Source: an uncultured delta proteobacterium
Lineage (GTDB): Bacteria > Desulfobacterota > Desulfobaccia > Desulfobaccales > 0-14-0-80-60-11
DNA length: 64,000 nt
Direction of reading: 5' to 3'
NCBI GenBank assembly: GCA_963773285.1
Contig: CAVZAM010000030.1
Coordinates: 25,662 to 89,661, forward strand
The notes under the pieces were generated by a model. That model saw nothing but the letters and a program-made list of their open reading frames with translations, did no database searches and was not told the DNA's origin. Position numbers and translations under genes: made by a program. This document shows positions 3,375 through 61,220 of the stretch, piece by piece; the first letter of the stretch is position 1, and each line of letters begins with the position of its first letter.

Positions 3375-3412
3375 CGGCTCTCTCCGTCCTCAATACATGA
3401 AGAATTATTTCT

Positions 3413-3627
3413 GGGAGGAGGACCAGGGACCTGAGATCCCTGCCCTCCCCCCAGACTCCCCTCCCAACCCGCCGAAGGTACTGGGCAAGGCTGGGGCCAT
3501 CGGGCCCGACTTTCCATCAGAAAAATCTGCCTCAAAGGATTGGGGGAGGGGGTAAGGGTCCATCGGCCCCGGTAGCACGGGCTTCCAGCCCGTGGGAACC
3601 CCCTTCCCCCGCTTGGCTCCGATTATG
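3413..3627. repeat. composite G/C-tract palindromic intergenic element (MITE/REP-like), full-length copy
   Basis: Hairpin GGGAGGAGGACCAGGGACCTGAGATCCCTGCCCTCCCC is followed by tail CCAGACTCCCCTCCCAACCC. After a spacer with hairpin CACGGGCTTCCAGCCCGTG comes the facing unit AAAGGATTGGGGGAGGGGGTAAGGG...CCCCTTCCCCC, then GCTTGGCTCCGATTATG. Confidence 0.8.
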
Positions 3628-5807: not shown

Positions 5808-5964
5808 GAGGGGCTAAGCGTGCCCTTCACTCCCTCGCCCCCACCCCCATTTCCTGGGGTTCACGCTTGAGCCGTGGCCTTGGCTCCCGGCTCAAGCCGA
5901 CTCACTAACAGGGTTGGGAGAGGGGTGGGGGGAGGGCAGGGACCTCAGGTCCCTGGCCCTCCCC
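5808..5964. repeat. composite G/C-tract palindromic intergenic element, full-length copy (opposite orientation)
   Basis: GAGGGGCTAAGCGTGCCCTTCACTCCCTCGCCCCCACCCCC, then a spacer hairpin GCTTGAGCCG..CGGCTCAAGC, then GGGTTGGGAGAGGGGTGGGGGGAGGGCAGGGACCTCAGGTCCCTGGCCCTCCCC. Confidence 0.75.
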
Positions 5965-5975
5965 ACATAACAATC

Positions 5976-7641
5976 TTACTCCCCCGCCCGCTTCAGCCCG
6001 TACAGCGTCTGGATGGACTCGTGGAGGCGCTCGGCCATGGGCGAGGCCGCCATCATATCCGTCACCACCTCGATATAGGCCCCGGTGCCGCAGGTAGCCG
6101 CCTTTTCCATGGCCGCGTCCAGCTCGCCGTTGGTGGCGGCCCTGGCGCAGAACCAGTCGGTGCAGCCCATGACCCTGGGGAGCTGCTGGTAATCCCACCC
6201 GGCCAGGTCATTGTAGCTGGCCAGGGGCTCCTTGCAGAGCAGCCGCTCGATGAGATAGCCCTGGTTGTTGAGGCAGAAAATAATGGGCTTCACGCCGTAG
6301 CGGCAGAACTGGCCGATCTCCTGCGCCGTCATCTGGTGGGCCCCTTCGCCGGTGATGAGGACGGTGCGCTTTCTCCGGCGCAGCCAGGGCCGCGCCCAGG
6401 GCCGCCGGGGTGCCCCAACCGATGGAACACCACAGGGTCTGGTTCAAAAAGACCGATCCCCTGGGCATCAGGGCAAAGGCCAGGCCCATGGAGACCGTGC
6501 CCGTCTCGGCGACCACCAGGTCCCCCGGCCTGAAAAAACTCTCCCAGCGCGGGTAAAGGTAATCAGGCGTAATCTTGTCATGGGAAGCCCCCTGGGGCGC
6601 GCCGAGGCCGTGGACCTTGGGCGCGGGGACCTGCTTTTTCCCCACCTTTCCGGCCAGGGCCACCAGGGCGTCGCACATTTCGATATCCGGGAAGAGCGCC
6701 CGGCCCACCTGCACATAGTGATGACGCACCGAGATCATCCTGGCCGGGTCGATATTGGCGGTGAAGGCGCCGGTGTTAAGGTCGCTCCACAGGGCCCCCA
6801 GGTTCAGGACGCAGTCGCAGCCCTCCACGAACTCCCGGATATCCTGGTTCATGATGCGGCCGTCGTACATGCCGATATACTGGGGGTGGGTTTCGTCCAG
6901 CGCGGTTTTGTCCATGAACATGGTGGCGAAAGGCAGGCCCGCGGCCTCCACCAGGGCCATGGCCTGGGCGGTGCACCCCAGCCGGGGGATGAGATACCCT
7001 GCCAGGATGACCGCGGTTTTCGCTTTGTCGAGTTTTTCGGCAATAGCCTCCACCGCCTCCTTGAGGGCTTCCGGATCGGTGGCGGGCTCCAAGTCCTGGC
7101 CCACGGCCGCGGCCGGGAGTACCGGGGCGGTGGCGCAGTCCGCCGGGATGCCTATATGCACGGGGCGGCGGTGGGCCAGGGCCGCGGCAATCAGGCGCTC
7201 CACCTCCACGGCGGCGTTCTCCGGCGTCAGCACAGCGCTGGCGCACACGGCCGGCCGGGACATTTTAAGGAAGACGTCGAACTCGCCCTTTCCCAGGGTG
7301 TGATGCACCAGCCGCCGTTCCCGCTGGGTCTTGGTGTTGGGCATGCCGGCCAGATGAAAGACGGGGACATGTTCGGTGTAAGAGCCGGCAATGCCGTTCA
7401 GGGCGCTCAGTTCCCCCACCCCGAAGGCCGTGGACAGGGCCCCAAAGCCCTTCACCCGGGCGTAGCCGTCCGCGGCATAGGCTGCGTTCAGTTCATTGCT
7501 GGTGCCGATCCAGCGGAGTTCCGGGTCCTCCACCACCGCGTCGGTGATGCCGAAGGAGAAATCCCCGGGGACGCCGAAGACCTCCCGGATACCCAGCTTT
7601 TTAAGGCGCGCCAAGACATGCTCCACCACGGTAACGGCCAT
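5976..7641 (-). CDS. 2-oxoacid decarboxylase of the pyruvate/indolepyruvate/phenylpyruvate decarboxylase family, apparent frameshift near 6373
   Basis: The N-terminus is close to PDC/IPDC (VFGVPGDFSFGI, NELNAAYAADGYARV, FGVGELSALNGIAGSYTEHVPV, HHTLG). Pieces 6208-7641 and 5976-6332 join at ...APEK/RTVLITGEGAHQMTAQEI. Confidence 0.85.
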
Positions 7642-9033: not shown

Positions 9034-9037
9034 TTCA

Positions 9038-9218
9038 TGGGGGAAGGGCCAGGGACCTGAGGTCCCTACCCTCCCCCCAGACCCCCCTCCCCACCCGCAT
9101 AGCAATCTGGTAGCCCAGGCATCTTGCCCGTGCTGACCGCCACCCGCTATAAGGGGTTGGGGGAGGGAGTTTGAGGGAGGGGGCAGGGGTCCGCTGACCC
9201 CTGGCTCCCTCCCTCAAA
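9038..9218. repeat. composite G/C-tract palindromic intergenic element, full-length copy
   Basis: TGGGGGAAGGGCCAGGGACCTGAGGTCCCTACCCTCCCCCCAGACCCCCCTCCCCACCC, then a spacer with GGTAGCCCAGGCATCTTGCCCGTGC, then AAGGGGTTGGGGGAGGGAGTTTGAGGGAGGGGGCAGGGGTCCGCTGACCCCTGGCTCCCTCCCTC. It lies between convergent stops. Confidence 0.8.
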
Positions 9219-12374: not shown

Positions 12375-12494
12375 AGGCGGGGGAGCAACTCCCCGTTACG
12401 GATGGAATCCGGAGGAGTTTCTGTAGAGGGCGGACCCGGTCCGCCCTCAGCACAGGCCCTCCTTAGTCCCCTCCCCCGCTTAGCTTCGATTATC
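12375..12494. repeat. partial G/C-tract palindromic element ending in GCTTAGCTTCGATTATC
   Basis: GGGGGAGCAACTCCCC hairpin, GAGGGCGGACCCGGTCCGCCCTC hairpin, then CCTTAGTCCCCTCCCCCGCTTAGCTTCGATTATC. The same end motif occurs at 3601-3627 and 26880-26904. Confidence 0.65.
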
Positions 12495-13904: not shown

Positions 13905-15741
<1,837 letters not shown>

Positions 15742-15806
15742 TTCTTTTTGATAGGTTCAATAAATCCTAAAATCTTTAGGAATTGCAGAAGTCGAAAACC
15801 CTTTGA

Positions 15807-16239: not shown

Positions 16240-16381
16240 GTTACCTCCTTTGAAAAAATGCCGTCTCCTTGATTAAACTTAGATAATCATTCCAATCCCG
16301 GCGGTCAAGAATTCAGGTTGCCGATTTTCCTGGGCTTGGCCATGCTGCTATAAGAGGTAAAGGAGGAATAACGACTAACTC

Positions 16382-17581
16382 CTATGTGCAAAGTCAAGTT
16401 GGCAAGGTGCCCCGGTGTCCTTTCAGAATCCAAGCCAGTCTCCTGATATGGTTGAAAGTTGTCAAGCAGGCGCGGGAGCCCCTTGGTTTTTTTGTTAAGC
16501 TGCGGGATGATTCTCAGGCCCCAGCGGGGCGGGACGCTTTAGCGACGTTTGATGCAATTTCAGAAAAAGTTTGGCACTGAGAAAGCTTGTCAAAAGCATT
16601 TGTTTCGCCTGCGTTGGCCAGAGGGATTTCGTTGACCCCGCTGTCAACATGGTGAGGCTTATTTTCAGCGCACCCGAAACTTATACCATTGTAGGGCCTG
16701 CGGCTATCAAGCCTCATTGACCGCAGGTACCGTGTTCCAGAAGACCAGAACGCCCTTGACCAAATGGTTCTGGATGATCTGGCTGATGGGGCGCCAGAAG
16801 AGCGGCATCTCGATGATGGCCCTGCAGCGGATGCTGGAGATCAAGAGCTACAAAACCGTCTGGACCATGGGCCACAAGATTCGTCAAGCCCTGGCTGCGC
16901 GGGAAGCCGACTACCAATTGGCTGGCTTGATCGAGATGGACGACACTTACTTCGGTGCTCCGAAACCCGGCAAACGTGGACGTGGCGCTGCCGGCAAGGC
17001 CAAGGTGGTGGTGGCCGTGGAAACCCCGACCGATAAGCCCAGGTTTGCCGCCATGCGCCTGGTGCCCCGGGTCAGCGGCGCAGAGATTCAACCCCTGGTA
17101 CAGGAGCGCCTGGCCTCCGGGGCGGTGATCAAGACCGATGGCTGGCAAGGCTATAGCTTCCTGGATGCTTCCCCCGGTCTCCGGCATGAGTGGCTGGTTC
17201 CCGGTTCGGGAAAGGAAGCGCCGAAGGTCTTGCCCTGGGTCCATACCTTGATCGCCAATATAAAGGGCAATATCCGGGGTATTCACCATGGCGTCAGTCC
17301 CAAACATCTGCCCCGCTACCTGGCGGAATTTTGCTACCGTTTCAACCGCCGCTTTTGGGAACCCCAGATGTTTAACCGCATGATTCATGCTTGCTTGCAT
17401 TCTACAACCGTTACTTTCTCAGAGCTAAAGGCATAATCGCTCATTTCACAGATTATCAATAGCTTGTAAGAATATTGATAAGATCCTCATAGCTTTCAAC
17501 CATTATGTCTATTCGTGAGTTCCCCTCGCAAGTGGGACCGCAAGTAATTACATCCGGGGTATTCAATCGGGGCTGACATAG
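16382..17581 (+). mobile_element. IS1595-family insertion sequence (boundaries tentative)
   Basis: It contains the IS1595-type DDE transposase gene. Candidate ends are CTATGT...CCCCGGTGT (16382-) and the inverted ACATCCGGGG...ACATAG (-17581), a weak imperfect match. The 8 bp flanks differ (ACTAACTC vs CTTGCCGC), so there is no target duplication. The right end abuts a truncated malic enzyme remnant. Confidence 0.5.
16552..17436 (+). pseudogene. IS1595-family transposase with in-frame TGA (16633-16635) replacing the first Cys of the N-terminal zinc ribbon
   Basis: ATG 16552 gives MQFQKKFGTEKACQKHLFRLRWPEGFR*PRCQHGEAYFQRTRNLYHCRACGYQASLTAGTVFQKTRTPLTKWF..., in frame with the 16717-17436 ORF. 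The DDE region is MDDTYFG...KTDGWQGY...YLAEFCYRFNRR. Confidence 0.8.
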
Positions 17582-17701
17582 CTTGCCGCCGTGGCCGCAA
17601 CCGCGTACGGGCAGGGGCTGGCCACCCAGCCGCAACCCGAGGATGTCATGGGCAACATCAAGGCACTGATGTATGAGCCGCAGTATCAGAATTACGTATA
17701 A
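17582..17701 (+). pseudogene. 3'-terminal remnant (about 39 codons plus stop) of a second malic enzyme gene
   Basis: It aligns with 15620-15741. By eye there are about 11 mismatches and one in-frame 3-nt gap. Translation LAAVAATAYGQGLATQPQPEDVMGNIKALMYEPQYQNYV* compares with IAAAVAETAYGQGLATQPRPEDVMGSIKSLMYEPKYQNYV*. Confidence 0.8.
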
Positions 17702-19035
17702 GTATTGTTAGAGGTTCCACACGGCGGGTTGAGATATTTCTCAGGATGGATCGGCTGGGGGCAGCGCGAGGCTTTCCGGGAGTATGCATAGGCGGCGGCC
17801 AAACGGTTTTTCCAGCCTGACTCCATCCTTACTATGCGCCTCAAGATGTTGGGCAGCTTATAGGTTTCATGCACGGCCCAATACCAGCCATTCTGAAGTT
17901 CTTCGGAGGTCATCCGGTGGGGATGGATGACTGATTGACAGGCGTCATAATGCGACCAGTCGAGATCGTGGATGCGGCCCTGGCGAGCCATCTCCGTGTA
18001 AAGCCTGGTACCTGGGAATGGCGTCAGGATATGATAAAGGACCACGTCTATTTTGCTGGCATTGACAAAATCAACCGTGCGCTTGAACACCCCCAGGTCA
18101 TCGTCATCGAGCCCGAAGATAAAACTGCCCATGATGGTAATGCCGCGTCGATGTAACTGACGGACGCCCGCGGCGTAATCTTCCGGCCGGTTAATGACCT
18201 TGCCTACTGACTTAAGGGCCCCGGCCGAGACGCTCTCGAAACCGATAAACACAAACCGCCCGCCCGCGGCAGCATAAAGGTCCATCAACTCCGCATCCTT
18301 GGTCAGGGTAAAGGACGCCTGCGCACCCCAGGTAATTCCCAGGGGAATCAGACCCCGCAACAACTCTTTGGCATACTGAACATTGCCGATGAGATTGTCG
18401 TCGAGAAACATCCAGCGTTTATCAGGCTGCTGGGCTATTTCGGCCACCACTTCGGCCACCGGCCGCCAGCGGTAACTGCGGCCGAAGAATTTCGTTACCG
18501 CGCAATAATGGCAGTCGAAAGGACAGCCGCGGGTGGCTTGCAGGGTATTAAAAACGCTGTACATCTCACGATTGAGCAAGGCCCGCCGGGGAGTCACCAT
18601 ACCCCCCATGTCAATCAGCTCAGGGTTCTGATAATTCCTCTGTGGCGCCCCGCCGTTTTCCAGATCCAGGAGGATTTGCGGCCACAACCCCTCGGCCTCC
18701 CCCGCCACCACAATGTCGGCGTGCCTGGCGGCCTCCTCGGGCAAGGCGGTGGCATGATAACCGCCGATAACCACCTTTTTGCCCCGCTGGCGGAATTCGT
18801 CGGCCATCCGGTAAACGTGCGGAATCTCGCAGGTCATGCCGGTAAAGCCCACCAGATCCCAGTCCCCGTCATAGCCAGGATCGCCCAGACGGGCATCGTG
18901 GATCACCACTTCGTGTTGAGGCGGGGTGAGCGCCGCGATGGTGGTCAAGGTCACCCTGGCAAAGCCGGCCTTACCACTCCTGGAAACCTGCCCGATAAAT
19001 CCGGTGGATTTCGGTTGCACGAGGAGTATCTTCAC
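17692..19035 (-). CDS. B12-binding-domain radical SAM protein (DUF4070-type C-terminus), function unknown
   Basis: N-terminal cobalamin-binding-like domain (MKILLVQP, VVIGGYHATALPEE), radical SAM cluster motif CPFDCHYC, and a C-terminal ILTPFPGTRLY...DWSHYD region. G+C is lower than in neighbouring genes. Confidence 0.85.
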   Translation of the reverse strand: MKILLVQPKSTGFIGQVSRSGKAGFARVTLTTIAALTPPQHEVVIHDARLGDPGYDGDWDLVGFTGMTCEIPHVYRMADEFRQRGKKVVIGGYHATALPEEAARHADIVVAGEAEGLWPQILLDLENGGAPQRNYQNPELIDMGGMVTPRRALLNREMYSVFNTLQATRGCPFDCHYCAVTKFFGRSYRWRPVAEVVAEIAQQPDKRWMFLDDNLIGNVQYAKELLRGLIPLGITWGAQASFTLTKDAELMDLYAAAGGRFVFIGFESVSAGALKSVGKVINRPEDYAAGVRQLHRRGITIMGSFIFGLDDDDLGVFKRTVDFVNASKIDVVLYHILTPFPGTRLYTEMARQGRIHDLDWSHYDACQSVIHPHRMTSEELQNGWYWAVHETYKLPNILRRIVRMESGWKNRLAAAYAYSRKASRCPQPIHPEKYLNPPCGTSNNTYT

Positions 19036-21924: not shown

Positions 21925-22691
21925 GCGGCCAAACCATCAACCTCACCCTGAGGGTCTGGCGCCAGCCAGGGCCCGCGGCTCAAGGCCGTTTGGATACTTA
22001 CCGGGCGGAGGGCATCCCCACCGATGCCTCTTTTCTGGAGATGCTGGATATCGTCAACGAGCGCCTGACGCTCGCGGGCCAGGAGCCCATCGCCTTCGAC
22101 CACGACTGCCGGGAAGGCATCTGCGGCATGTGCGGCGCCGTCATCAACGGCCGGCCCCACGGCCACGAAAAAGAGACCACCCTGTGCCAGCTGCACATGC
22201 GTCACTTCAAGGACGGCGACACCGTGGTCATCGAGCCCTTCAGGGCCCGGGCCCTGCCTCCCGTCAAAGACCTGGTGGTGGACCGCCAGGCCCTGGACCA
22301 GATCATCACCGCCGGGGGCTTTATCGCCGTGAACACGGGTCAGGCCCCGGAGGCCAACTCGCTGCCCGTCCCGAAGGTCAATGCCGACCTGGCCATGGAC
22401 GCGGCGGCCTGCATCGGCTGCGGCGCCTGCATTGCCGCCTGCCCCAACGCCGCGGCCATGCTCTTCACCAGCGCCAAGATCTCCCAGCTGGCGCTCCTGC
22501 CCCACGGCCGCCCGGAAGCCGCCAGGCGGGCCCTGGCCATGGTGGCCAAAATGGACGAGCTGGGCTTCGGCAACTGCACCAACCACAAGGAATGCGAGGT
22601 GGAGTGCCCCAAGGGCATTGCCATCGGCAACATCGCCCGCCTGAACCGGGAATTCATCAAGGCCGCGCTGGGCTCCCCGGAAAATATTTAG
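21921..22691 (+). CDS. sdhB: succinate dehydrogenase/fumarate reductase iron-sulfur subunit
   Basis: Cys clusters CREGICGMCG, CIGCGACIAACP and CTNHKECEVECP are present. The start overlaps the sdhA stop. Confidence 0.9.
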
Positions 22692-22752
22692 GGGGAAGGG
22701 CCAGGGAGCAGTGGCCTCCTGCCCTCCCCCCACACCCCCCTCCCAACCCTTT
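22690..22752. repeat. half-unit (hairpin plus C-rich tail) of the G/C-tract element
   Basis: GGGGGAAGGGCCAGGGAGCAGTGGCCTCCTGCCCTCCCCCCACACCCCCCTCCCAACCCTTTA, immediately 3' of sdhB. Confidence 0.75.
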
Positions 22753-22767
22753 ACGTTGTGGCCAAGG

Positions 22768-23245
22768 CCCTTCTATCAACACAGACACGTATTGCTCTTG
22801 GCAAAATGGTCCTTAGTTTATGGGAAGGAGGGCAACCTGGGGATGTATGAGCCCCGGCCCTTCGAGGAGATCACCGTACGCCCGCTGGCAGGCCATCATC
22901 GAGGTCAATTTCATGAGCGGCGTGCGCCTTTCCCGCCACTACCTGCCCCGCATGAAAGCCGCCGACTGGGGCCGCATCATTTTCCTGTCCAGCGAGTCCG
23001 GGGTCAACATCCCCGTGGAGATGATCCATTACGGCGTCACCAAGGCCATGTACCTGGCCCTGAGCCGGGGCTTGGCCGAAGCCACCGCCGGCACCGGCGT
23101 CACCGTCAATGCCGTGCTCCCCGGCCCGACCCGCTCCGAGGGCGTGGACCGCTTCATCAAGGAGTTTGTTTGGCCCAAGCCAGGACCATGTCCAGGCTTG
23201 GGCCAAATATTTCTCACACCCTCAAGGGATTGGGGAGGGGGGTAA
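22768..23245 (+). pseudogene. deletion-derivative duplicate of the downstream SDR gene
   Basis: 22768-23163 is nearly base-identical (a handful of mismatches by eye) to two parts of the full locus: leader 23417-23477 and coding 23840-24171. About 360 bp between those segments, including the TGxxxGIG Rossmann N-terminus, is missing. The residual ORF is 22820-23245. Confidence 0.8.
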
Positions 23246-23289
23246 GGGCAGGTGGCACAGGTCCCGCCGTGTCCTTAGCCCCCTCCCCC
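23221..23289. repeat. half-unit (G-rich anti-tail plus hairpin) of the G/C-tract element
   Basis: CTCAAGGGATTGGGGAGGGGGGTAAGGGCAGG...CCTTAGCCCCCTCCCCC. It is preceded by spacer hairpin TTTGGCCCAAGCC..GGCTTGGGCCAAA (23169-23207). Confidence 0.75.
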
Positions 23290-23576
23290 ATCATCTTATC
23301 TCCCCCAAAATAATGCCGGCGGCATTTCGGTCCGGGGCCATGGACACCCCGCCGCCGGGGTAGCTGCCGGAGCCGCACAGGTACACATTCGTCACCGGCG
23401 TCCGGCATGCAAAAATCCTTCTATCAACACCGGCACGTATTGCTCTTGGCAAAATGGACCTTAGTTTATGGGAAGGACGGTTCTTGGCCCGTCGGCGGGA
23501 AGGCCCGGAACAGCCCGGGTTGCCCCCTGCCGGAACGTGGCGCCATCCCCCGCAAAAAAAAGCCTTCGAGGTGTGT

Positions 23577-24373
23577 ATGGATCTGCAATTAAAAGACAAA
23601 CTGGCCCTGGTGACGGGCTCCACCGCCGGCATCGGCCTGGCCATCGCCACCTCCCTGGCGGCTGAAGGGGCCCGGGTCATCGTCAACGGCCGCGACGAGA
23701 AGCGGGTGAACGGGGCCCTGGAGGAAATCCGCCGGGCCCAGCCCCAGGCCAATCTGGCCGGACTGGCCGCGGACCTGGCCCAACCCCGGGGCGCCGAGGA
23801 GACGATAAGGCGTTTCCCCGAGGTGGACATCCTGGTCAACAACCTGGGGATGTATGAGCACCGCAGCCCTTCGAGGACATCACCGACGCCCACTGGCAGG
23901 CCATCATCGAGGTCAATTTCATGAGCGGCGTGCGCCTTTCCCGCCACTACCTGCCCCGCATGAAAGCCGCCGACTGGGGCCGCATCATTTTCCTGTCCAG
24001 CGAGTCCGGGGTCAACATCCCCGTGGAGATGGTCCATTACGGCGTCACCAAGGCCATGTACCTGGCCCTGAGCCGGGGCCTGGCCGAAACCACCGCCGGC
24101 ACCGGCGTCACCGTCAATGCCGTGCTCCCCGGCCCGACCCGCTCCGAGGGCGTGGACCGGTTCATCAAGGAACTGGGAGAGTCCAAAAATCTTCCCCCCG
24201 AAGCAGTCGAGCAGGAATTCTTCCGCTCCATGCGCCCCACTTCGCTTTTGCAGCGCTTCGCCAGCCCCGGGGAGGTGGCCAGCATGGTGACTTATCTGGC
24301 CAGCCCCCTGGCTTCGGCCACCAACGGCGCGGCCGTGCGGGTGGACGGCGGGGTGGTCCGCTCCATGGTTTAG
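23577..24373 (+). CDS. SDR-family oxidoreductase, apparent frameshift near 23866
   Basis: MDLQLKDKLALVTGSTAGIGLAIA (TGxxxGIG), NNLG, a YxxxK region (HYGVTKAMYLAL) and PGPTRSEG are present. Pieces 23454-23924 and 23921-24373. Confidence 0.85.
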
Positions 24374-24390
24374 TTTTGAGGGTTATTAAG

Positions 24391-24590
24391 TGGGGCTGAG
24401 GGCCGGTGGGCCCTTACCCCCTCCCCCTCACCCCCTCCCCCAATCCCGCAGAGGGTCCGGGAAGATGAGGCTCTGGGCAAGTCGGGACTATGCCCGGTTT
24501 ATTGCCCAAACACTAATAGGGATTGGGGGAGGGGGTGCGGGGGGAGGGCAAGGAGCCCAGCGGCTCCCTAGCCCCCTCCCACCGCTAACC
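24391..24590. repeat. composite G/C-tract palindromic intergenic element, full-length copy
   Basis: GGGGCTGAGGGCCGGTGGGCCCTTACCCCCTCCCCCTCACCCCCTCCCCCAATCCC, a spacer, then AATAGGGATTGGGGGAGGGGGTGCGGGGGGAGGGCAAGGAGCCCAGCGGCTCCCTAGCCCCCTCCC. Confidence 0.8.
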
Positions 24591-25609: not shown

Positions 25610-25696
25610 GGTCTTTATCCGCCTGCAGCCTGTTTGGCGAAGGAGGGCTTGTCCTGGTATGTTTAACCTTGTAATGATTGCACGGTCACTGAAGTC

Positions 25697-26839: not shown

Positions 26840-26904
26840 CTAAGGGATCGGGGGGTAAGCGGCCACCTCCCCTTAGCCCTCTCCCCCACTAAATTTCGAT
26901 TATG
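26840..26904. repeat. solo unit of the G/C-tract element with TTCGATTATG end
   Basis: CTAAGGGATCGGGGGGTAAGCGGCCACCTCCCCTTAGCCCTCTCCCCCACTAAATTTCGATTATG. Confidence 0.7.
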
Positions 26905-32178: not shown

Positions 32179-33024
32179 ATGAGGGGCATGTTGGGCATCT
32201 GGCCCCCCTCCCCGGCCCGCCTTATGGGCTCCGTCATCCTTATCCTGGGACTCACGATCATGAGCCTGCCCTCTCCCCGGCCAGGTCTGGCCCTGTCCGA
32301 ATCCCACCGCCACCAGGACCAGGAACAGGCTCCCGAACATTATCGGGACCGGGTGATCCGGGATCTCAAGCAGGCCGTTGACCATGTTGAACCCCTCCTG
32401 GCCCGCTATGGTTATCCGGCGGTCTTCCTGGCCATCCTGGTGGAAGGCGTTGGCCTGCTGGCCCCCGGGCAGACCTTGCTGATAGCCGCCGCCCTGGCCG
32501 CCACCCAGGGCAGGCTGAACATTGTCTGGGTGTTGATCTGGGCCTTCACCGCCGCGGTGCTGGGGAACAGCCTGGGATATCTCCTCGGCCGCTGGGGCGG
32601 GCGCCCGCTCCTGCGCAAAATCAGCGTGAATGAGCGGCACCTGGCCCGGATGGAGGATTATTTTACCCGGCAGGGCAAATGGGTGGTGATTTTCGCCCGC
32701 TTTGTTGATGGGCTCAGGCAGCTGAACGGCATTGTGGCCGGCATGCTGAAAATGCCCTGGCAGGTGTTCACTTCCTGCAATATCCTGGGGGCTGCCTTAT
32801 GGACCGGGGTGTGGGGGCTGGGAGTTTATTGTTTAGACAAAAAAATCATCTCACTGCACCTCACCCTGCACCAGGTCAAGCCTTGGGTGGCCGCTTGCTG
32901 CCTCCTGGCTTTCCTGGCACTTCTCGGCTACCTGCTGCTGCCTGGCCGGAAGAAAAGTGTGGGGGGGCCAGGAACTGGGGCCCTGCCCTTCCCGCCCTCA
33001 ACCCCAGAGGGTAGTACGGGCTAG
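32179..33024 (+). CDS. DedA family membrane protein (start uncertain; last ~22 codons and stop lie inside a repeat element)
   Basis: YGYPAVFLAILVEGVGLLAPGQTLLIAA...GNSLGYLLGRWGG...VIFARFVDGLRQLNGIVAG is the DedA/SNARE-associated core. Confidence 0.75.
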   Translation: MRGMLGIWPPSPARLMGSVILILGLTIMSLPSPRPGLALSESHRHQDQEQAPEHYRDRVIRDLKQAVDHVEPLLARYGYPAVFLAILVEGVGLLAPGQTLLIAAALAATQGRLNIVWVLIWAFTAAVLGNSLGYLLGRWGGRPLLRKISVNERHLARMEDYFTRQGKWVVIFARFVDGLRQLNGIVAGMLKMPWQVFTSCNILGAALWTGVWGLGVYCLDKKIISLHLTLHQVKPWVAACCLLAFLALLGYLLLPGRKKSVGGPGTGALPFPPSTPEGSTG

Positions 33025-33108
33025 CTCGTGAGGGCCAACGTCCCTTACCTTTCAGCGATTCGAGGAGGGCAGGGTAGGCAAGGCCCACCTGCCTCTAGCC
33101 CCCTCCCC
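32959..33108. repeat. composite G/C-tract palindromic element (degenerate copy)
   Basis: GTGGGGGGGCCAGGAACTGGGGCCCTGCCCTTCCCGCCCTCAACCCC, a spacer, then GAGGAGGGCAGGGTAGGCAAGGCCCACCTGCCTCTAGCCCCCTCCCC. It lies between convergent genes. Confidence 0.65.
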
Positions 33109-36689: not shown

Positions 36690-37503
36690 TCAGACTTTCC
36701 TGGCTCCAAGGCGCCGCCGCAAAAGCACCGCCGCCACCCCCGTGCCGAACAGCACCCAGGACGGCGCAATGGGGACAGGATTCGTAGAATCCCCTGCCAG
36801 GGTCATAGTCCCCGGGGAGGGGCTGGCAAAAAAACCCAAGGCCTCCACATCGCTTATTTTCCAGCCGCTATACCTGCCGCTCAGATACCACGCATTGCTT
36901 TGCCATTTAACTGAGTAATTCTCCAGGGCCACCACCCCATCATCGGAATCGGTGATGTAAATGCCGGTGTAGGCGCCCGGGGCACTATAACTGAAACCCC
37001 AGAGGGTGACGGCGTGGGCCAGCGAGCCGTTTCTGATGGTCATGGTCACGCCATCGCCCTTGTGCAGCAGGGTGTCGGCCATGCTCATCAAGTTTCCCGT
37101 GGAACCATAGGCAAGGTATTGATTGATGTTCAGGGAGGGAAAGAAATCTCCGCCGACTAGCGTTAGGATACGCCTAAGCCTTAGTGGGCGGTTTGGCGCC
37201 GCTGAACCACCAGTTCCATGCCCAACTCATGTCTCCTGTCTTGTTGGTCCAGTGTGCCACGAAATCTTTAAAAATCGCTGTATCGGTGCTGTAAGTCGAA
37301 GTCCCCCATTTTTCATAAGCTAGGACGTTGACAGCCGCAGCGGCCCAGCACATGAGGGAATCATCATTCCTGGTCTTGTTGGCGTCGTGCCAGGTGCCGC
37401 CGTACTGGTTATAAATGAAATACGTGTCCGACAGGGCCGGGACTGCAGTCGCCAGCACCAGCAATGAGATCATCAACAGATAACCGTAAATGCGCTTCTT
37501 CAT
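36690..37503 (-). CDS. papain-fold cysteine peptidase-like secreted protein with PEP-CTERM-type anchor, apparent frameshift near 37190
   Basis: Signal peptide MKKRIYGYLLMISLLVLATAVPALS. Putative catalytic Cys in DDSLMCWAAAAVNVLAY, His in SLAHAVTLWGF, then YITDSDDG. C-terminal VPIAPSWVLFGTGVAAVLLRRRLGARKV. Pieces 37174-37503 and 36690-37091. Confidence 0.65.
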
Positions 37504-37685
37504 TGTTCATCTCCCCCGAAAAAGAACATGGTTGTTGGCTCAGAGACCGGTAAAGGCTAGTCTGGGGGCAGACGCAGGGGACGGGCTTGAAAGGTGGGAA
37601 AGGCCTGGTTTAAACGCAGACGTGCCGGCGCGGTTGTCCTTGGTCAAACCTGGCCGGCGCCATGCTTACCTTTTTCCTGACCGCC

Positions 37686-38630: not shown

Positions 38631-38790
38631 GGAGGCTGCTCCTTTCGCTTAAGGGGGGCCGGGGCGCGGCGCCTTCAGCCATCGCGGCAATATAATCCGT
38701 GATATCCTCAACAACGCCACCGTGCCGGTCCTGGTGATGCGAGCCAGGCCCAAAGGCCTCATCCCCTTCGTGAGAAGGACTCTGTCTCGC

Positions 38791-39739
38791 CTATTTGGAC
38801 AACCCCGCCAGGCCGCCGCCGGTTAGCAAACTCTCCAGCCCGGCCCGGTTCTCCACGTTGGCGAAGCGCTCCGCCGGTTCGTCGGGGAGGATTTTGCGCA
38901 CCAGGCCCTTCAGGACATTCTTGGGCCCCACCTCCACCCAGCTATCCACCCCGGCGTTTTTCAGGTTGATGATGAGGTCGGCCCAGCGCACCGGCGAGGT
39001 GAGCTGCCTGGACATGGCCTGGCGCAGGCGTTCCGGGTCATCTTCCGGCGCCGCGGTGGCGTTGAGATAGACCGGCAGGCTGGGGGCCTTGAAGGTCAGG
39101 CCGGCGAGGCATTGGGTGAAATCGGCGGTGGCAGCAGCCATCAACGGGGAATGCCAGGCCCCCGACACCTTGAGGGGCACCACCCGGGCCCCGGCAGCCT
39201 TGGCGGCCTCCCCGGCCCGGGCCACCATTTCCTTGGTGCCGGAAATCACCGTCTGCTCCCGGGTGTTGAAGTTGGCCAGGGCCAGGGGACCTTCGGCCAG
39301 GAGCGCTTGCAGGGTTTCTGCCAGCTTGTCCGGGGCCAGGCCGATGACCGCGGCCATGGTCCCGGGGTGGCGCTCCGCCTCCCGCTGCATGAGTCGGCCG
39401 CGCTCCCGCACCGCTTTGATGGTGTCGCCGGCGCTCAGGACCCCGGCGGCAAAAAGCGCGCTCGTATTCCCCCAGACTGTGGCCGCAAACCGCCGCCGGC
39501 TTGACTCCGGCCTGTTTCAGGGCCTCATACAGGCAGATGTTGACCACCGTCACCGCGGGCTGGAGGTTCACGGTTTCGGTGAGTTCCTCCATGGGCCCCT
39601 CAAAACACAGGCGCTTGATGGGCAGGCCGGTCACCTCCTCGGCCAGGTCGAAAAGCTTGCGGGCGGCAGGGTCGGCAGCATACAGGTCCGCGCCCATGCC
39701 CACGTACTGGGACCCCTGCCCGGGAAAAAGCAATGCCAT
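38791..39739 (-). CDS. fabD: malonyl-CoA:ACP transacylase, apparent frameshift near 39463
   Basis: MALLFPGQGSQYVGMG, the active site GHSLGEY interrupted directly after it, and FNTREQTVISG, VSGAWHSPLM, VRWADLI. Start ATG 39739. The upstream part of ORF 39038-39964 is repeat-derived. Confidence 0.9.
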
Positions 39740-39773
39740 GGTTGCCACGTCTTCAAACCTCACTAGTCTTGTT

Positions 39774-39962
39774 TGGGGGGAGGGCCAGGGAGCGGCGGTT
39801 CCCTGCCCTCCCCCCAAGCCCCCCTCCCAACCCTTTAGTGTTTGGCGACAGGACCAGGGCCATACCCCTGGCCGTCGCCAACTTTTTAACCTACTCAAGG
39901 GATTGGGGGAGGGGGCTGTGGGGGAGGGGGTAAGGGGCCTCCGACCCTTAGCCCCCTCCCCC
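39774..39962. repeat. composite G/C-tract palindromic intergenic element, best-preserved full-length copy
   Basis: GGGGGGAGGGCCAGGGAGCGGCGGTTCCCTGCCCTCCCCCCAAGCCCCCCTCCCAACCCTTTAG, then spacer hairpin TTGGCGAC..GTCGCCAA, then CTCAAGGGATTGGGGGAGGGGGCTGTGGGGGAGGGGGTAAGGGGCCTCCGACCCTTAGCCCCCTCCCCC. Confidence 0.85.
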
Positions 39963-39980
39963 AAGTACTCGTTGCTGCCG

Positions 39981-45826: not shown

Positions 45827-46605
45827 CAGACCCGCGTTTGGCATAGCTACCACGCCCGAATGGTAGGGGCATGGCTTGCCATGCCCTGTCTCGACTGATG
45901 CCAATGTCTCTGTTCCATTTATTCCGCCACCCGTCCCACCCGTACTGGCCCCCGGCGCCGCCTTTGCTACAGTGGACTCAGGCCCGGGCTTCGTCTGCCC
46001 GCCCCTTCCCTGAAAAAACCATGGAGGCCCAAAAATGCCCGCGTTGCGGAACAAGCCGTATTTTTTTATCAAGCAGATCCCTGCAACTTCCAAGAATCAC
46101 AGTAAATATTTGCCTGTTTGCCAAGGCGGCAGCAAGCGGCACAATAACGGCACACACCGGCAACAAGCCGAAATATATGCGGAAACTAACGGCACGCATG
46201 CGGTAACTGCCGGGACACGTGCGGTGCTGTTCCGCCACTTGTTCCTGATTATTTGTCCCAACCGTCCCGGGCACAGACGTAACCATTATAGAATTATTGC
46301 ATAACTTTTTTTTGGCCCGCTTGTGCCCGGGGGAACTTGATCCTTCGCCTCGAAAAAAATGTATAATCAATAGGTTAAGTCATTAGCCAGCGGCGTTGGA
46401 GCAGTGGCTGCCGGGCGAAATTTTGCCCCAAAAAGACCTGTTTTGAGGGGTTTTTTGCCAAAAATTTGCCTTTTTCGGGATTTTTTTATCAGTAACTTGG
46501 GGGAATCTCTTTGAAAAAAAACCGCCCCAGTCTTACAATAAGCCACTGCTAAAGCCATTAGCATTATCCGCCGGTTAATTTCCCGGCTTATCACAGGAGG
46601 TTCGC

Positions 46606-47947: not shown

Positions 47948-48127
47948 CGGGGGAGGGGGCCAGGGGTCGCAGACCCCTGCCCCCTCCCCCGGACCCCCTT
48001 CCCCAACCCCTTATAGGGTTTAATCCGAGAAAGTTAGGACTTTAAGCGACGCTTCCTCGAACATTATGCGGGTTGGGTGGGGGGTGTGGGGGGAGGGTAG
48101 GGACCTCAGGTCCATAGCCCTCCCCCC
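47948..48127. repeat. composite G/C-tract palindromic intergenic element, full-length copy
   Basis: CGGGGGAGGGGGCCAGGGGTCGCAGACCCCTGCCCCCTCCCCCGGACCCCCTTCCCCAACCCCTTATAGGG, a spacer, then GCGGGTTGGGTGGGGGGTGTGGGGGGAGGGTAGGGACCTCAGGTCCATAGCCCTCCCCCC. Confidence 0.8.
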
Positions 48128-48143
48128 ACGAAGGAGTCCCATT

Positions 48144-49676: not shown

Positions 49677-49860
49677 GGGTGGTCACCTGCGGACAGTAAG
49701 CTTATGAACGTGTGATGGTTAGCAGACTTCGATTGGCATAGCAAACCACGCCGCGAGCGGTAAGGGGCGTGGCGGAGGGCAATGCAGAAATATACCCGGG
49801 CAAACGGGGGGCCCGGCTTAGAGCAGACCCCCCTGGCGGATTTTCCTTACGAACGGCTGG

Positions 49861-61151: not shown

Positions 61152-61157
61152 GGTTAC

Positions 61158-61198
61158 GTGGGGGAGGACCAGGGAACGCGGTTCCCGGCCCCTCCCCC
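61158..61198. repeat. solo hairpin of the G/C-tract element between dapA and dapB
   Basis: GTGGGGGAGGACCAGGGAACGCGGTTCCCGGCCCCTCCCCC. Confidence 0.7.
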
Positions 61199-61220
61199 AT
61201 ATCACCTTCACGGAGGCCTT

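Follow-up and report, generated by a model that had tools for sequence, protein, structure and literature searches.

Several kinds of short non-coding repeat are known from the gaps between bacterial genes. The repetitive extragenic palindromic (REP) sequences of enterobacteria and Pseudomonas, together with the bacterial interspersed mosaic elements (BIMEs) and REPINs, are short imperfect palindromes that are present in hundreds of copies and form inverted doublets with a linker; they are found after stop codons and in operons, are lineage-specific, leave no target-site duplication, and their stems are kept by compensatory change. Miniature inverted-repeat transposable elements (MITEs), such as Correia/NEMIS, RUP and ERIC, are non-coding sequences of 100–200 bp with inverted termini, which give long hairpins when transcribed; the Correia element duplicates a TA target. 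Repeats of the BoxC/PIT type were reportedly described from E. coli and other Proteobacteria by Hoyne and co-workers in 2000. BoxC/PIT/TMECO sequences have been characterized as intrastrand-triplex repeats: TMECO forms a triplex in vitro, its loci are variable or unstable between strains with no link to mobile elements, and closely spaced inverted TMECO/BoxC pairs always combine a type A with a type B copy (Holder et al. 2015, PMC4666352). In the following, a repeat family is described that has features of each of these groups, starting from one copy at positions 39774–39962 of a 64,000-nt stretch of DNA (hereafter, the window), which corresponds to positions 25,662–89,661 of contig CAVZAM010000030.1 from an uncultured delta proteobacterium of the Desulfobaccales (G000:C30:25662-89661 in our numbering; assembly GCA_963773285.1, 3.87 Mb in 46 contigs, approx. 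60% G+C).

The focal element is, on balance, probably a lineage-specific non-coding palindromic repeat of the REP/BIME kind, built of triplex-capable arms and copied via a single-stranded DNA (ssDNA) form. Its left arm (type 6-1-3, + strand) consists of a purine tract, G1 (GGGGGGAGGG, 39775–39784, columns 6–15 of the arm-profile model), an inner extension hairpin identified from sequence and fold (CCAGGGAGC-GGCG-GTTCCCTG, 39785–39805), a Watson–Crick pyrimidine tract, C1, which is the reverse complement of G1 (CCCTCCCCCC, 39806–39815), and a tail in which the 3-nt linker AAG precedes a second pyrimidine tract, C2 (CCCCCCTCCC), and AACCC (39819–39833, + strand). C2 reads as the mirror of C1 and is a candidate Hoogsteen strand. 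A central spacer hairpin (39842–39881, + strand, from the fold; TTGGCGAC...GTCGCCAA), the sequence of which differs from copy to copy, is followed by the right arm (type 5-1-5 ‘B’, 39899–39962, − strand, arm-profile E 2.7e-15). Read on the + strand, the latter comprises GGGATT, the tail GGGGGAGGGGG (39905–39915), the linker CTGT, a central purine tract, again GGGGGAGGGGG (39920–39930), an inner hairpin (39931–39951) and CCCCCTCCCCC (39952–39962), an order of tracts that corresponds to a class I (R*-R-Y; R, purine, Y, pyrimidine) triplex design. The entire copy folds as three hairpins, with −77 kcal/mol as DNA (z −8.9) and −137.5 kcal/mol as minus-strand RNA (z −7.8), and its central hairpin differs from that of the orthologous copy of a 98%-identical strain by a compensatory change from A-T to G-C. 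This anatomy of hairpin, C-rich tail, spacer hairpin and inverted second unit matches that given in an earlier reading of the window made from its letters alone (the original prediction).

When the 13 arms of the window were aligned, and the profile was iterated over the genome with nhmmer and overlaps were removed, 471 non-redundant arms of approximately 70 nt were obtained, 405 of them with E < 1e-6. The family covers 39 kb, i.e. 1.0% of the genome, and fills gaps after stop codons about 300 times; a reversed diagnostic pattern used as a control gave 0–1 matches per genome, as against 54 with the real pattern in this genome. The proposal that a single hairpin-plus-tail unit underlies a dense non-coding family thus holds genome-wide, and so does the description of full-length copies as inverted pairs of units around a hairpin spacer. 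Indeed, adjacent arms less than 400 nt apart are almost always arranged ‘+ then −’, that is, tail to tail (166 of 169 pairs, the others being one ‘−+’ and two ‘−−’), the inter-arm gap having its mode at 45–50 nt. The clean full-length elements (n = 151) have a median length of 188 nt (interquartile range, IQR, 182–192), and approximately 170 arms are solo. The spacer is free in sequence but folded (median z −3.5 with respect to shuffles, 73% being below −2), and the consensus flank before each arm reads ..TTT(G/T)T, of which only the T at position −1 is conserved (259 of the 302 ends).

Three linked arm haplotypes can be distinguished, namely A613C (GGGGGGAGGG / CCAGGG..CCCTG / CCCTCCCCCC / CCCCCCTCCC-AAC; 192 arms), B515T (GGGGGAGGGGG / CTAAGG..CCTTA / CCCCCTCCCCC / CCCCCTCCCCC-AAT; 127 arms) and A515C (71 arms), and their combination obeys a rule: 92 elements join A613C to B515T and 31 join A613C to A515C, giving 123 heterotypic pairs versus at most three homotypic ones. 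Since heterotypic pairing is near-universal, the element is a defined asymmetric unit and not the chance meeting of solo arms. The two terminal inverted repeats that had been proposed are systematically different arm types. Heterotypic tails pair imperfectly with each other, so that the C-rich tail would not serve mainly for pairing with the other tail.

What the original prediction missed is that, to judge from the letters, the C-rich tail is the mirror image of the C-tract of its own arm. Each arm was parsed as the purine tract G1, its Watson–Crick partner C1 and the tail tract C2; as the MAFFT alignment put the two arm types in different registers, covariation was counted on profile-anchored columns. 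The most frequent combinations are G1 GGGGGGAGGG with C1 CCCTCCCCCC and C2 CCCCCCTCCC (45 arms), and G1 GGGGGAGGGGG with CCCCCTCCCCC as both C1 and C2 (27 arms). They are followed by GAGGGAGGGGG with CCCCCTCCCTC and CTCCCTCCCCC (eight arms), GGGGGAGGG with CCCTCCCCC and CCCCCTCCC (five arms), GAGGGGAGGA (and GAGGGGAGGG, GAGGAGAGGG) with CCCTCCCCTC and CTCCCCTCCC (3+2+2 arms), GGGAGAGGAGG with CCCCCTCTCCC and CCCTCTCCCCC (two arms), and GGGAGAGGGGG with CCCCTCTCCC and, again, CCCTCTCCCCC (one arm). C1 is asymmetric in 156 arms; 103 of these have a C2 that mirrors it exactly, none has a C2 that repeats it exactly in direct orientation, and the modal tail is the mirror in all six multi-copy asymmetric haplotypes. 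When G1(i) is set against C2(i+44), i.e. in the parallel register, an A faces a T in 401 of 710 cases, compared with 34–174 in 11 shifted or antiparallel registers. The covariation is replicated in 400 kb of a genome of another genus (G013), in which the architecture is alike (51 ‘+−’ pairs, spacer mode 45–47 nt) and the parallel register accounts for 106 of 176 cases versus at most 44 in the controls. The third base opposite an A-T pair is T in 342 cases, A in 59, C in 29 and G in three (T 85, A 23 and C 2 in the other genus), and that opposite a G-C pair is C in 3085, T in 83, A in 20 and G in six. To our knowledge, DNA copying yields repeats in direct or inverted orientation but no mirrored ones; the mirror would therefore have been kept by selection, or go back to very few shared ancestral events.

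A purine tract followed by a loop, a pyrimidine tract, a second loop and a mirrored pyrimidine tract (R-loop-Y-loop-Y) corresponds to the standard textbook layout of an intramolecular triplex. The arms contain all three tracts of such a motif, that is, the purine tract, the Watson–Crick pyrimidine tract and the mirrored third tract. Short loops between the three (1–6 nt in ITxF) are not found throughout: the second linker is of 2–4 nt, and the first ‘loop’ is the extension hairpin of 20–25 nt, which implies that loop-limited searches such as ITxF would miss the arms. At the level of sequence, the C-rich arm strand shows the class III order (purine, hairpin, pyrimidine, 2–4-nt linker and mirror pyrimidine; PMC4666352) and the G-rich arm strand the class I order (reverse-Hoogsteen G-tract, purine tract, hairpin and pyrimidine tract).

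The resemblance to BoxC/PIT/TMECO goes further. Both are intergenic and G/C-rich, with three tracts of 9–11 nt (one pyrimidine and two purine, or the complement) from which a triplex fold of one strand is possible; the full-length elements pair a 6-1-3 with a 5-1-5 arm, as in the A + B rule of TMECO; and in both the loci vary between strains with no link to mobile elements. Unlike TMECO, which is class II on the G-rich strand (Y-R-R*), the family is class I/III (R*-R-Y, R-Y-Y*), and its Watson–Crick loop is a 6-bp extension hairpin instead of 3–6 nt. Furthermore, its 471 arms are approximately 20-fold more than the 23 TMECO of E. coli K-12, it occurs by default as a 186-nt composite around a central hairpin, and it is tightly placed, approximately 8 nt past stops, whereas TMECO has no preferred distance (PMC4666352). 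The TMECO consensus, CCCTCNCCC-N3-6-GGGNGAGGG-N3-GGGNGAGGG, has only four matches in the genome versus the 471 arms; the two are the same kind of element but different sequence families. The heterotypic rule that the family and E. coli BoxC have in common hints, by analogy, at a shared constraint, for which the avoidance of perfect long palindromes is a candidate.

Placement with respect to genes is equally narrow. Of the full-length elements, 50 are in convergent, 92 in tandem and nine in divergent gaps, the genome having 490, 2479 and 493 such gaps, respectively. In tandem gaps the element starts at a median of 8 nt past the upstream stop (IQR 4–14), and 80% of the copies begin 0–22 nt after the stop, versus 26% on random placement in gaps able to hold an element. 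The median length of element-bearing gaps is 218 nt, so that the element is nearly the entire gap. The remark that copies in the window sit just 3′ of stop codons or between convergent genes can, therefore, be extended to the genome, divergent gaps being rarely occupied.

How the family should be classified depends in the first place on how it moves. A classical MITE, i.e. a deletion derivative of an insertion sequence (IS) moved by a DDE transposase that binds terminal inverted repeats of approximately 60–70 bp, would account for the length of approximately 186 bp, the long inverted termini, the high copy number, the polymorphism between strains and the long hairpins expected on transcription, and the original prediction had used the label MITE/REP-like. 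Nevertheless, the distribution of flank matches equals that of the shuffled control, so that no target-site duplication is detected; the arm pairs 250–3500 nt apart in this genome, all of which were listed, have no IS, transposase or transposase-like open reading frame (ORF) between them; and the termini are structured and heterotypic by rule. The single genes flanked by arms (31 listed, 13 translated) are all housekeeping with no paralogy among them, and include those for a flavodiiron protein, acyl-CoA dehydrogenase, a LeuC-like protein, ThiC, TrpB, HtrA and isocitrate dehydrogenase. This genome yielded no parent IS, and the family pattern had no matches in viral contigs. The MITE half of the label fails and the REP-like half is the better fit, a classical MITE being regarded by us as very improbable. 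Indeed, all of the features listed at the outset for REP/BIME/REPIN sequences recur in the family. They could be taken to mean that it is a plain REPIN/BIME, in which the hairpins alone are the sites of a RAYT (REP-associated tyrosine transposase)-type Y1 transposase and the mirrored tail is a by-product with no structural role. The lack of target-site duplication, the inverted doublet and the post-stop position are all in line with it, as is the presence in the genome of three RAYT-like Y1_Tnp (PF01797) genes (G000:C4:13638-14240, C37:56010-56696 and C37:13013-14347). However, each of the latter has inverted GTAG-type hairpins of its own on either side (GTAGAACAGCC..., GGTGGGGCAGGCC... and GTAGGGGCCGAC...), the nearest arm being more than 4 kb away, and they were rejected as partners of the arms; the three may constitute REP/RAYT systems of their own, distinct from the G-tract family (TGTAGAACAGCCGCCCCCGGCTGTTCT occurs on both sides of the gene at C37:56010). 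Besides being absent from around RAYT genes, the arms lack a GTAG-type 5′ tetranucleotide, carry the extra mirror tract and differ within the doublet by rule, and the mirror is kept in at least six haplotypes and two genera though no copying process makes mirrors. A plain REPIN/BIME is, therefore, considered unlikely.

A different set of observations bears on which strand and which molecule are under constraint. In the outer stem, on the C-rich strand, A.C mismatches are more numerous than G.T (271 vs 147), the former corresponding to G.T wobbles on the G-rich strand. The inner stem shows no such asymmetry (2103 Watson–Crick pairs, 78 G.T and 66 A.C). For the elements of tandem gaps, the A.C:G.T ratio of the outer stem is 47:17 in the stop-proximal arm and 47:18 in the stop-distal arm, and the bias, being equal in both, is tied to arm orientation and not to the direction of transcription. 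The T or A opposite A-T pairs would give T.A-T and A.A-T triples, both compatible with a purine motif on the G-rich strand, and a third-strand A does not fit the pyrimidine motif. Since purine-motif triplexes are not formed by RNA (PMC4666352), we infer that the constraint acts on each arm's G-rich strand in an ssDNA form. These data also bear on the possibility of an RNA-level element of the 3′ untranslated region that stops or protects the upstream mRNA, possibly by means of a pyrimidine-motif triple helix formed by the RNA of the stop-proximal arm. Such an element would explain why 80% of copies are within 22 nt of a stop and divergent gaps are depleted, and would be in keeping with the stability of the RNA fold and with the solo arms of tandem gaps, which prefer the hairpin-then-tail orientation (R-Y-Y in the mRNA sense) by 68 to 35. 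Full-length copies are unpolarised, the direction from 6-1-3 to 5-1-5 being unrelated to that of the gene (37 vs 47, not significant), the wobble asymmetry tracks the arm and not the transcript, and the third-strand A opposite A-T fits only the motif that RNA does not form. In addition, a terminator scan of 39774–39962 revealed no T-run behind any hairpin and no terminator-like site, the consensus 3′ flank of the terminal hairpin being A-rich, and a search of the window against Rfam 15 gave zero matches at the gathering threshold and, in E-value mode, only matches to miRNA hairpins that are far below it, in agreement with the earlier statement that the repeats could not be assigned to a named family. 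An RNA-level element is accordingly given a low probability. Lower still is that of a G-quadruplex/i-motif element with an incidental mirror arrangement. The G-rich strand of 402 of the 471 arms is indeed quadruplex-capable, with at least four G3+ runs and short loops, but a quadruplex would leave the place of a single A free, whereas the covariation of A/T positions extends over the three tracts and a Watson–Crick partner is retained for the purine tract.

In the preferred reading, i.e. a REP/BIME-like repeat of triplex-capable arms, the element is copied as a whole asymmetric unit, one 6-1-3 and one 5-1-5 arm around a free-sequence hairpin, either strand of which can fold into three stacked hairpins. 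Copies arrive or survive almost solely right after stops and are gained, lost and eroded between strains. Hairpin pairing and the mirror (base-triple) geometry would be kept by selection on the ssDNA form. The purine-motif triplex of the G-rich strand would be the likelier folded form, and the folded G-rich strand the most plausible substrate of the machinery by which the element is copied or maintained. Given that no target duplication is seen, a single-strand mechanism with hairpin recognition (HUH/RAYT-like) is the foremost candidate. Resident copies would, in turn, place very stable hairpins in 3′ untranslated and intercistronic RNA. It is proposed more tentatively, as something possible that we would still not call probable, that an intrastrand triplex forms in living cells under purifying selection, most likely as a Mg2+-dependent purine-motif structure of the G-rich strand; it could arise during replication or as the substrate of the copying enzyme.

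Several considerations weigh against these proposals. C+.G-C triples in succession have little stability at neutral pH, and the quadruplex capacity of the G-rich strand just mentioned offers it another fold. Triplex formation is deduced from sequence covariation only, and this covariation amounts to approximately 5–6 distinct haplotype events, in haplotypes that are common to several genera. With the E. coli TMECO, a stable triplex was not detected by in vivo footprinting, and the double-stranded form remained a duplex (PMC4666352). As for mobility, the genome yielded no gene that would mobilise the arms, the hairpins beside the three RAYT-like genes being different ones, and the sole strain-level presence/absence site (see below) has no clean junction and may represent either a gain or a loss. 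Finally, the position statistics are those of a simple custom codon-bias gene caller (3508 genes).

The family is a new addition to the REP/BIME-like and BoxC/PIT-like repeats, and not a classical MITE; no description of such repeats in Desulfobaccales was found in the literature consulted. What is new here is the mirror covariation, which links the family to triplex-motif repeats and provides a testable case for selected triplex geometry. The hundreds of diverged copies are a natural mutagenesis set, in which one A.T triple shifts in step across three tracts, and they make testable the old question of whether intrastrand triplexes matter in vivo. If the proposal were true, this would be the first covariation-based evolutionary evidence that intrastrand triplex DNA plays a part in vivo. 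The range of triplex-capable repeats is also extended, from Proteobacteria and Cyanobacteria to Thermodesulfobacteriota. From a practical point of view, the family fills most short post-stop gaps and creates false ORFs and N-terminal extensions, as had been pointed out (e.g. ORF 39038–39964, − strand, traverses the focal element), and it breaks assemblies of metagenome-assembled genomes (MAGs) at contig ends, so that its masking in Desulfobaccales genomes is advisable.

The distribution of the family is that of a lineage-specific repeat. Of the 24 other genomes examined from the same Desulfobaccales family, 22 contain the diagnostic pattern (13 of 14 genera), which is present in none of 14 sister-family genomes and neither of two more distant ones. 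When 80 glutamate dehydrogenase (gdh) loci from many phyla were inspected, arms were found in seven, all from Desulfobaccales, Desulfobacca, Desulfobacterales or unclassified deltaproteobacterial MAGs. A separate observation made in the genome of the other genus is an arm subfamily in which the Watson–Crick C-tract begins with an inserted or substituted CTTACAATCC (..CCCACTTACAATCCTCCCCC), at L020:519-601, L034:7868-7949, L017:11848-11930 and L023:507-590; the change would shorten the triplex stem.

Within the lineage, the turnover of single sites is clear, and a comparison of orthologous gaps, as suggested in the original prediction, reveals variability between strains and species. At the focal gap, between an ABC ATPase gene and fabD, the content differs in seven of seven congeners, the flanks of which are 79–85% identical; only one of them (G004) holds a copy, which is rearranged, and the congener gaps carry unrelated repeats. 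With an identity of about 80%, the congeners are too distant to provide a clean empty site. The gap between the gdh and aldehyde dehydrogenase genes, filled in the window by the copy at 9035–9218, is empty (10 nt) in one related MAG and contains other repeats in further MAGs. At closer range, in two metagenome contigs approximately 98% identical to the window, eight of nine loci are occupied, with many indels and an eroded arm. The full-length copy at 24392–24580 is absent from a 97–99%-identical strain (ENA ERZ25039517 contig_49673), where approximately six unrelated bases are found in its place. The copies thus appear to be places where indels and rearrangements are locally concentrated.

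The shared block at the window loci named in the original prediction was recovered by a repeat search (families D3–D6, D8, D12 and I1–I10), and the iterated nhmmer profile places arms at 3408, 5902, 9035, 9147, 22687, 23218, 24392, 24510, 39772, 39891, 47949, 48060 and 61156. Of the copies listed in that prediction, those at 12375–12494, 26840–26904 and 32959–33108 and the left arm at 5808–5870 are degenerate and fail at E 1e-3; the copies at 5808 and 12375 are better preserved in the 98%-identical strain. In the full-length copy at 3408–3627, the left arm (3408–3479) is intact and the inner loop of the right arm contains a GTAG-type REP-like hairpin, and a 47-nt spacer indel separates it from the close strain. 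The copy at 5808–5970 has an intact right arm (5902–5970) and a decayed left arm (5808–5870), with deletions of 4, 8 and 10 nt relative to the close strain, where the arm is intact. The copy that fills the convergent gap between the glutamate dehydrogenase and aldehyde dehydrogenase genes (9035–9218) joins a 6-1-3 to an A-type 5-1-5 arm, and that at 47949–48131, which is also present in the close strain, an A-type 5-1-5 to a 6-1-3 arm. The degenerate full-length copy at 32959–33108 is below the profile threshold, its arms being detected at the orthologous place of the close strain (L117rc 6052-6259), and the unit at 61156–61207 (+ strand, arm-profile E 2.3e-4) is a solo hairpin without tail. 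The left arm at 22687–22758 (6-1-3, + strand) is solo in appearance and probably represents one half of an element, a duplicated gene segment having separated it from the other half; a spacer hairpin and right arm (B 5-1-5, − strand) at 23164–23290 are fused to a truncated copy of a short-chain dehydrogenase gene, and this segment is missing from the close strain L119.

Two sequences that the original prediction had attached to the family are, genome-wide, not linked to its arms. The extension ...TTCGATTAT, found in the window at 3615–3627, 12482–12494 and 26892–26904, occurs 22 times genome-wide and only once near a profile-detected arm. The fragments at 45836–45892 and 49727–49790 (TTGGCATAGC) have 11 copies in the genome, one of which is near an arm, and look like a motif separate from the arms. 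A second repeat family, of GTAG-type REP-like hairpins (GGTAGCACGGGCTTCCAGCCCGTG.., GGTAGCCCGGGCATCTTGCCCGGGC), has approximately 99 sites genome-wide, including 3570–3600 and 9122–9150 in the window. Its hairpins are in some cases nested in the spacer or inner loop of G-tract elements (13 of 151 spacers) and also occupy the focal orthologous gap in the congeners G002 and G006.

Other differences between close strains were noted in the same window. A 1008-nt tandem duplication in 22759–24377 (22878–23163 and 23886–24171 being 98% identical), which involves part of the short-chain dehydrogenase gene, lies between the two halves of the split element, beside the copy at 24392–24580; the 99%-identical strain L119 has a single copy of the duplicated segment, the gene being called as a 173-residue truncated adh_short product. 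An approximately 1.2-kb segment (16381–17584) bounded by 125-nt direct repeats (15625–15749 and 17585–17709) is also missing from L119. Next to the focal element, fabD (Acyl_transf_1, window 38784–39740, − strand) is split into two frames (ORFs 39038–39964 and 38791–39411), which reflects either a frameshift or an assembly error; the 98%-identical contig L014 encodes an intact 318-residue fabD product, with single-base differences at 39463 and 38684, and lacks a 410-nt segment corresponding to 37243–37652.

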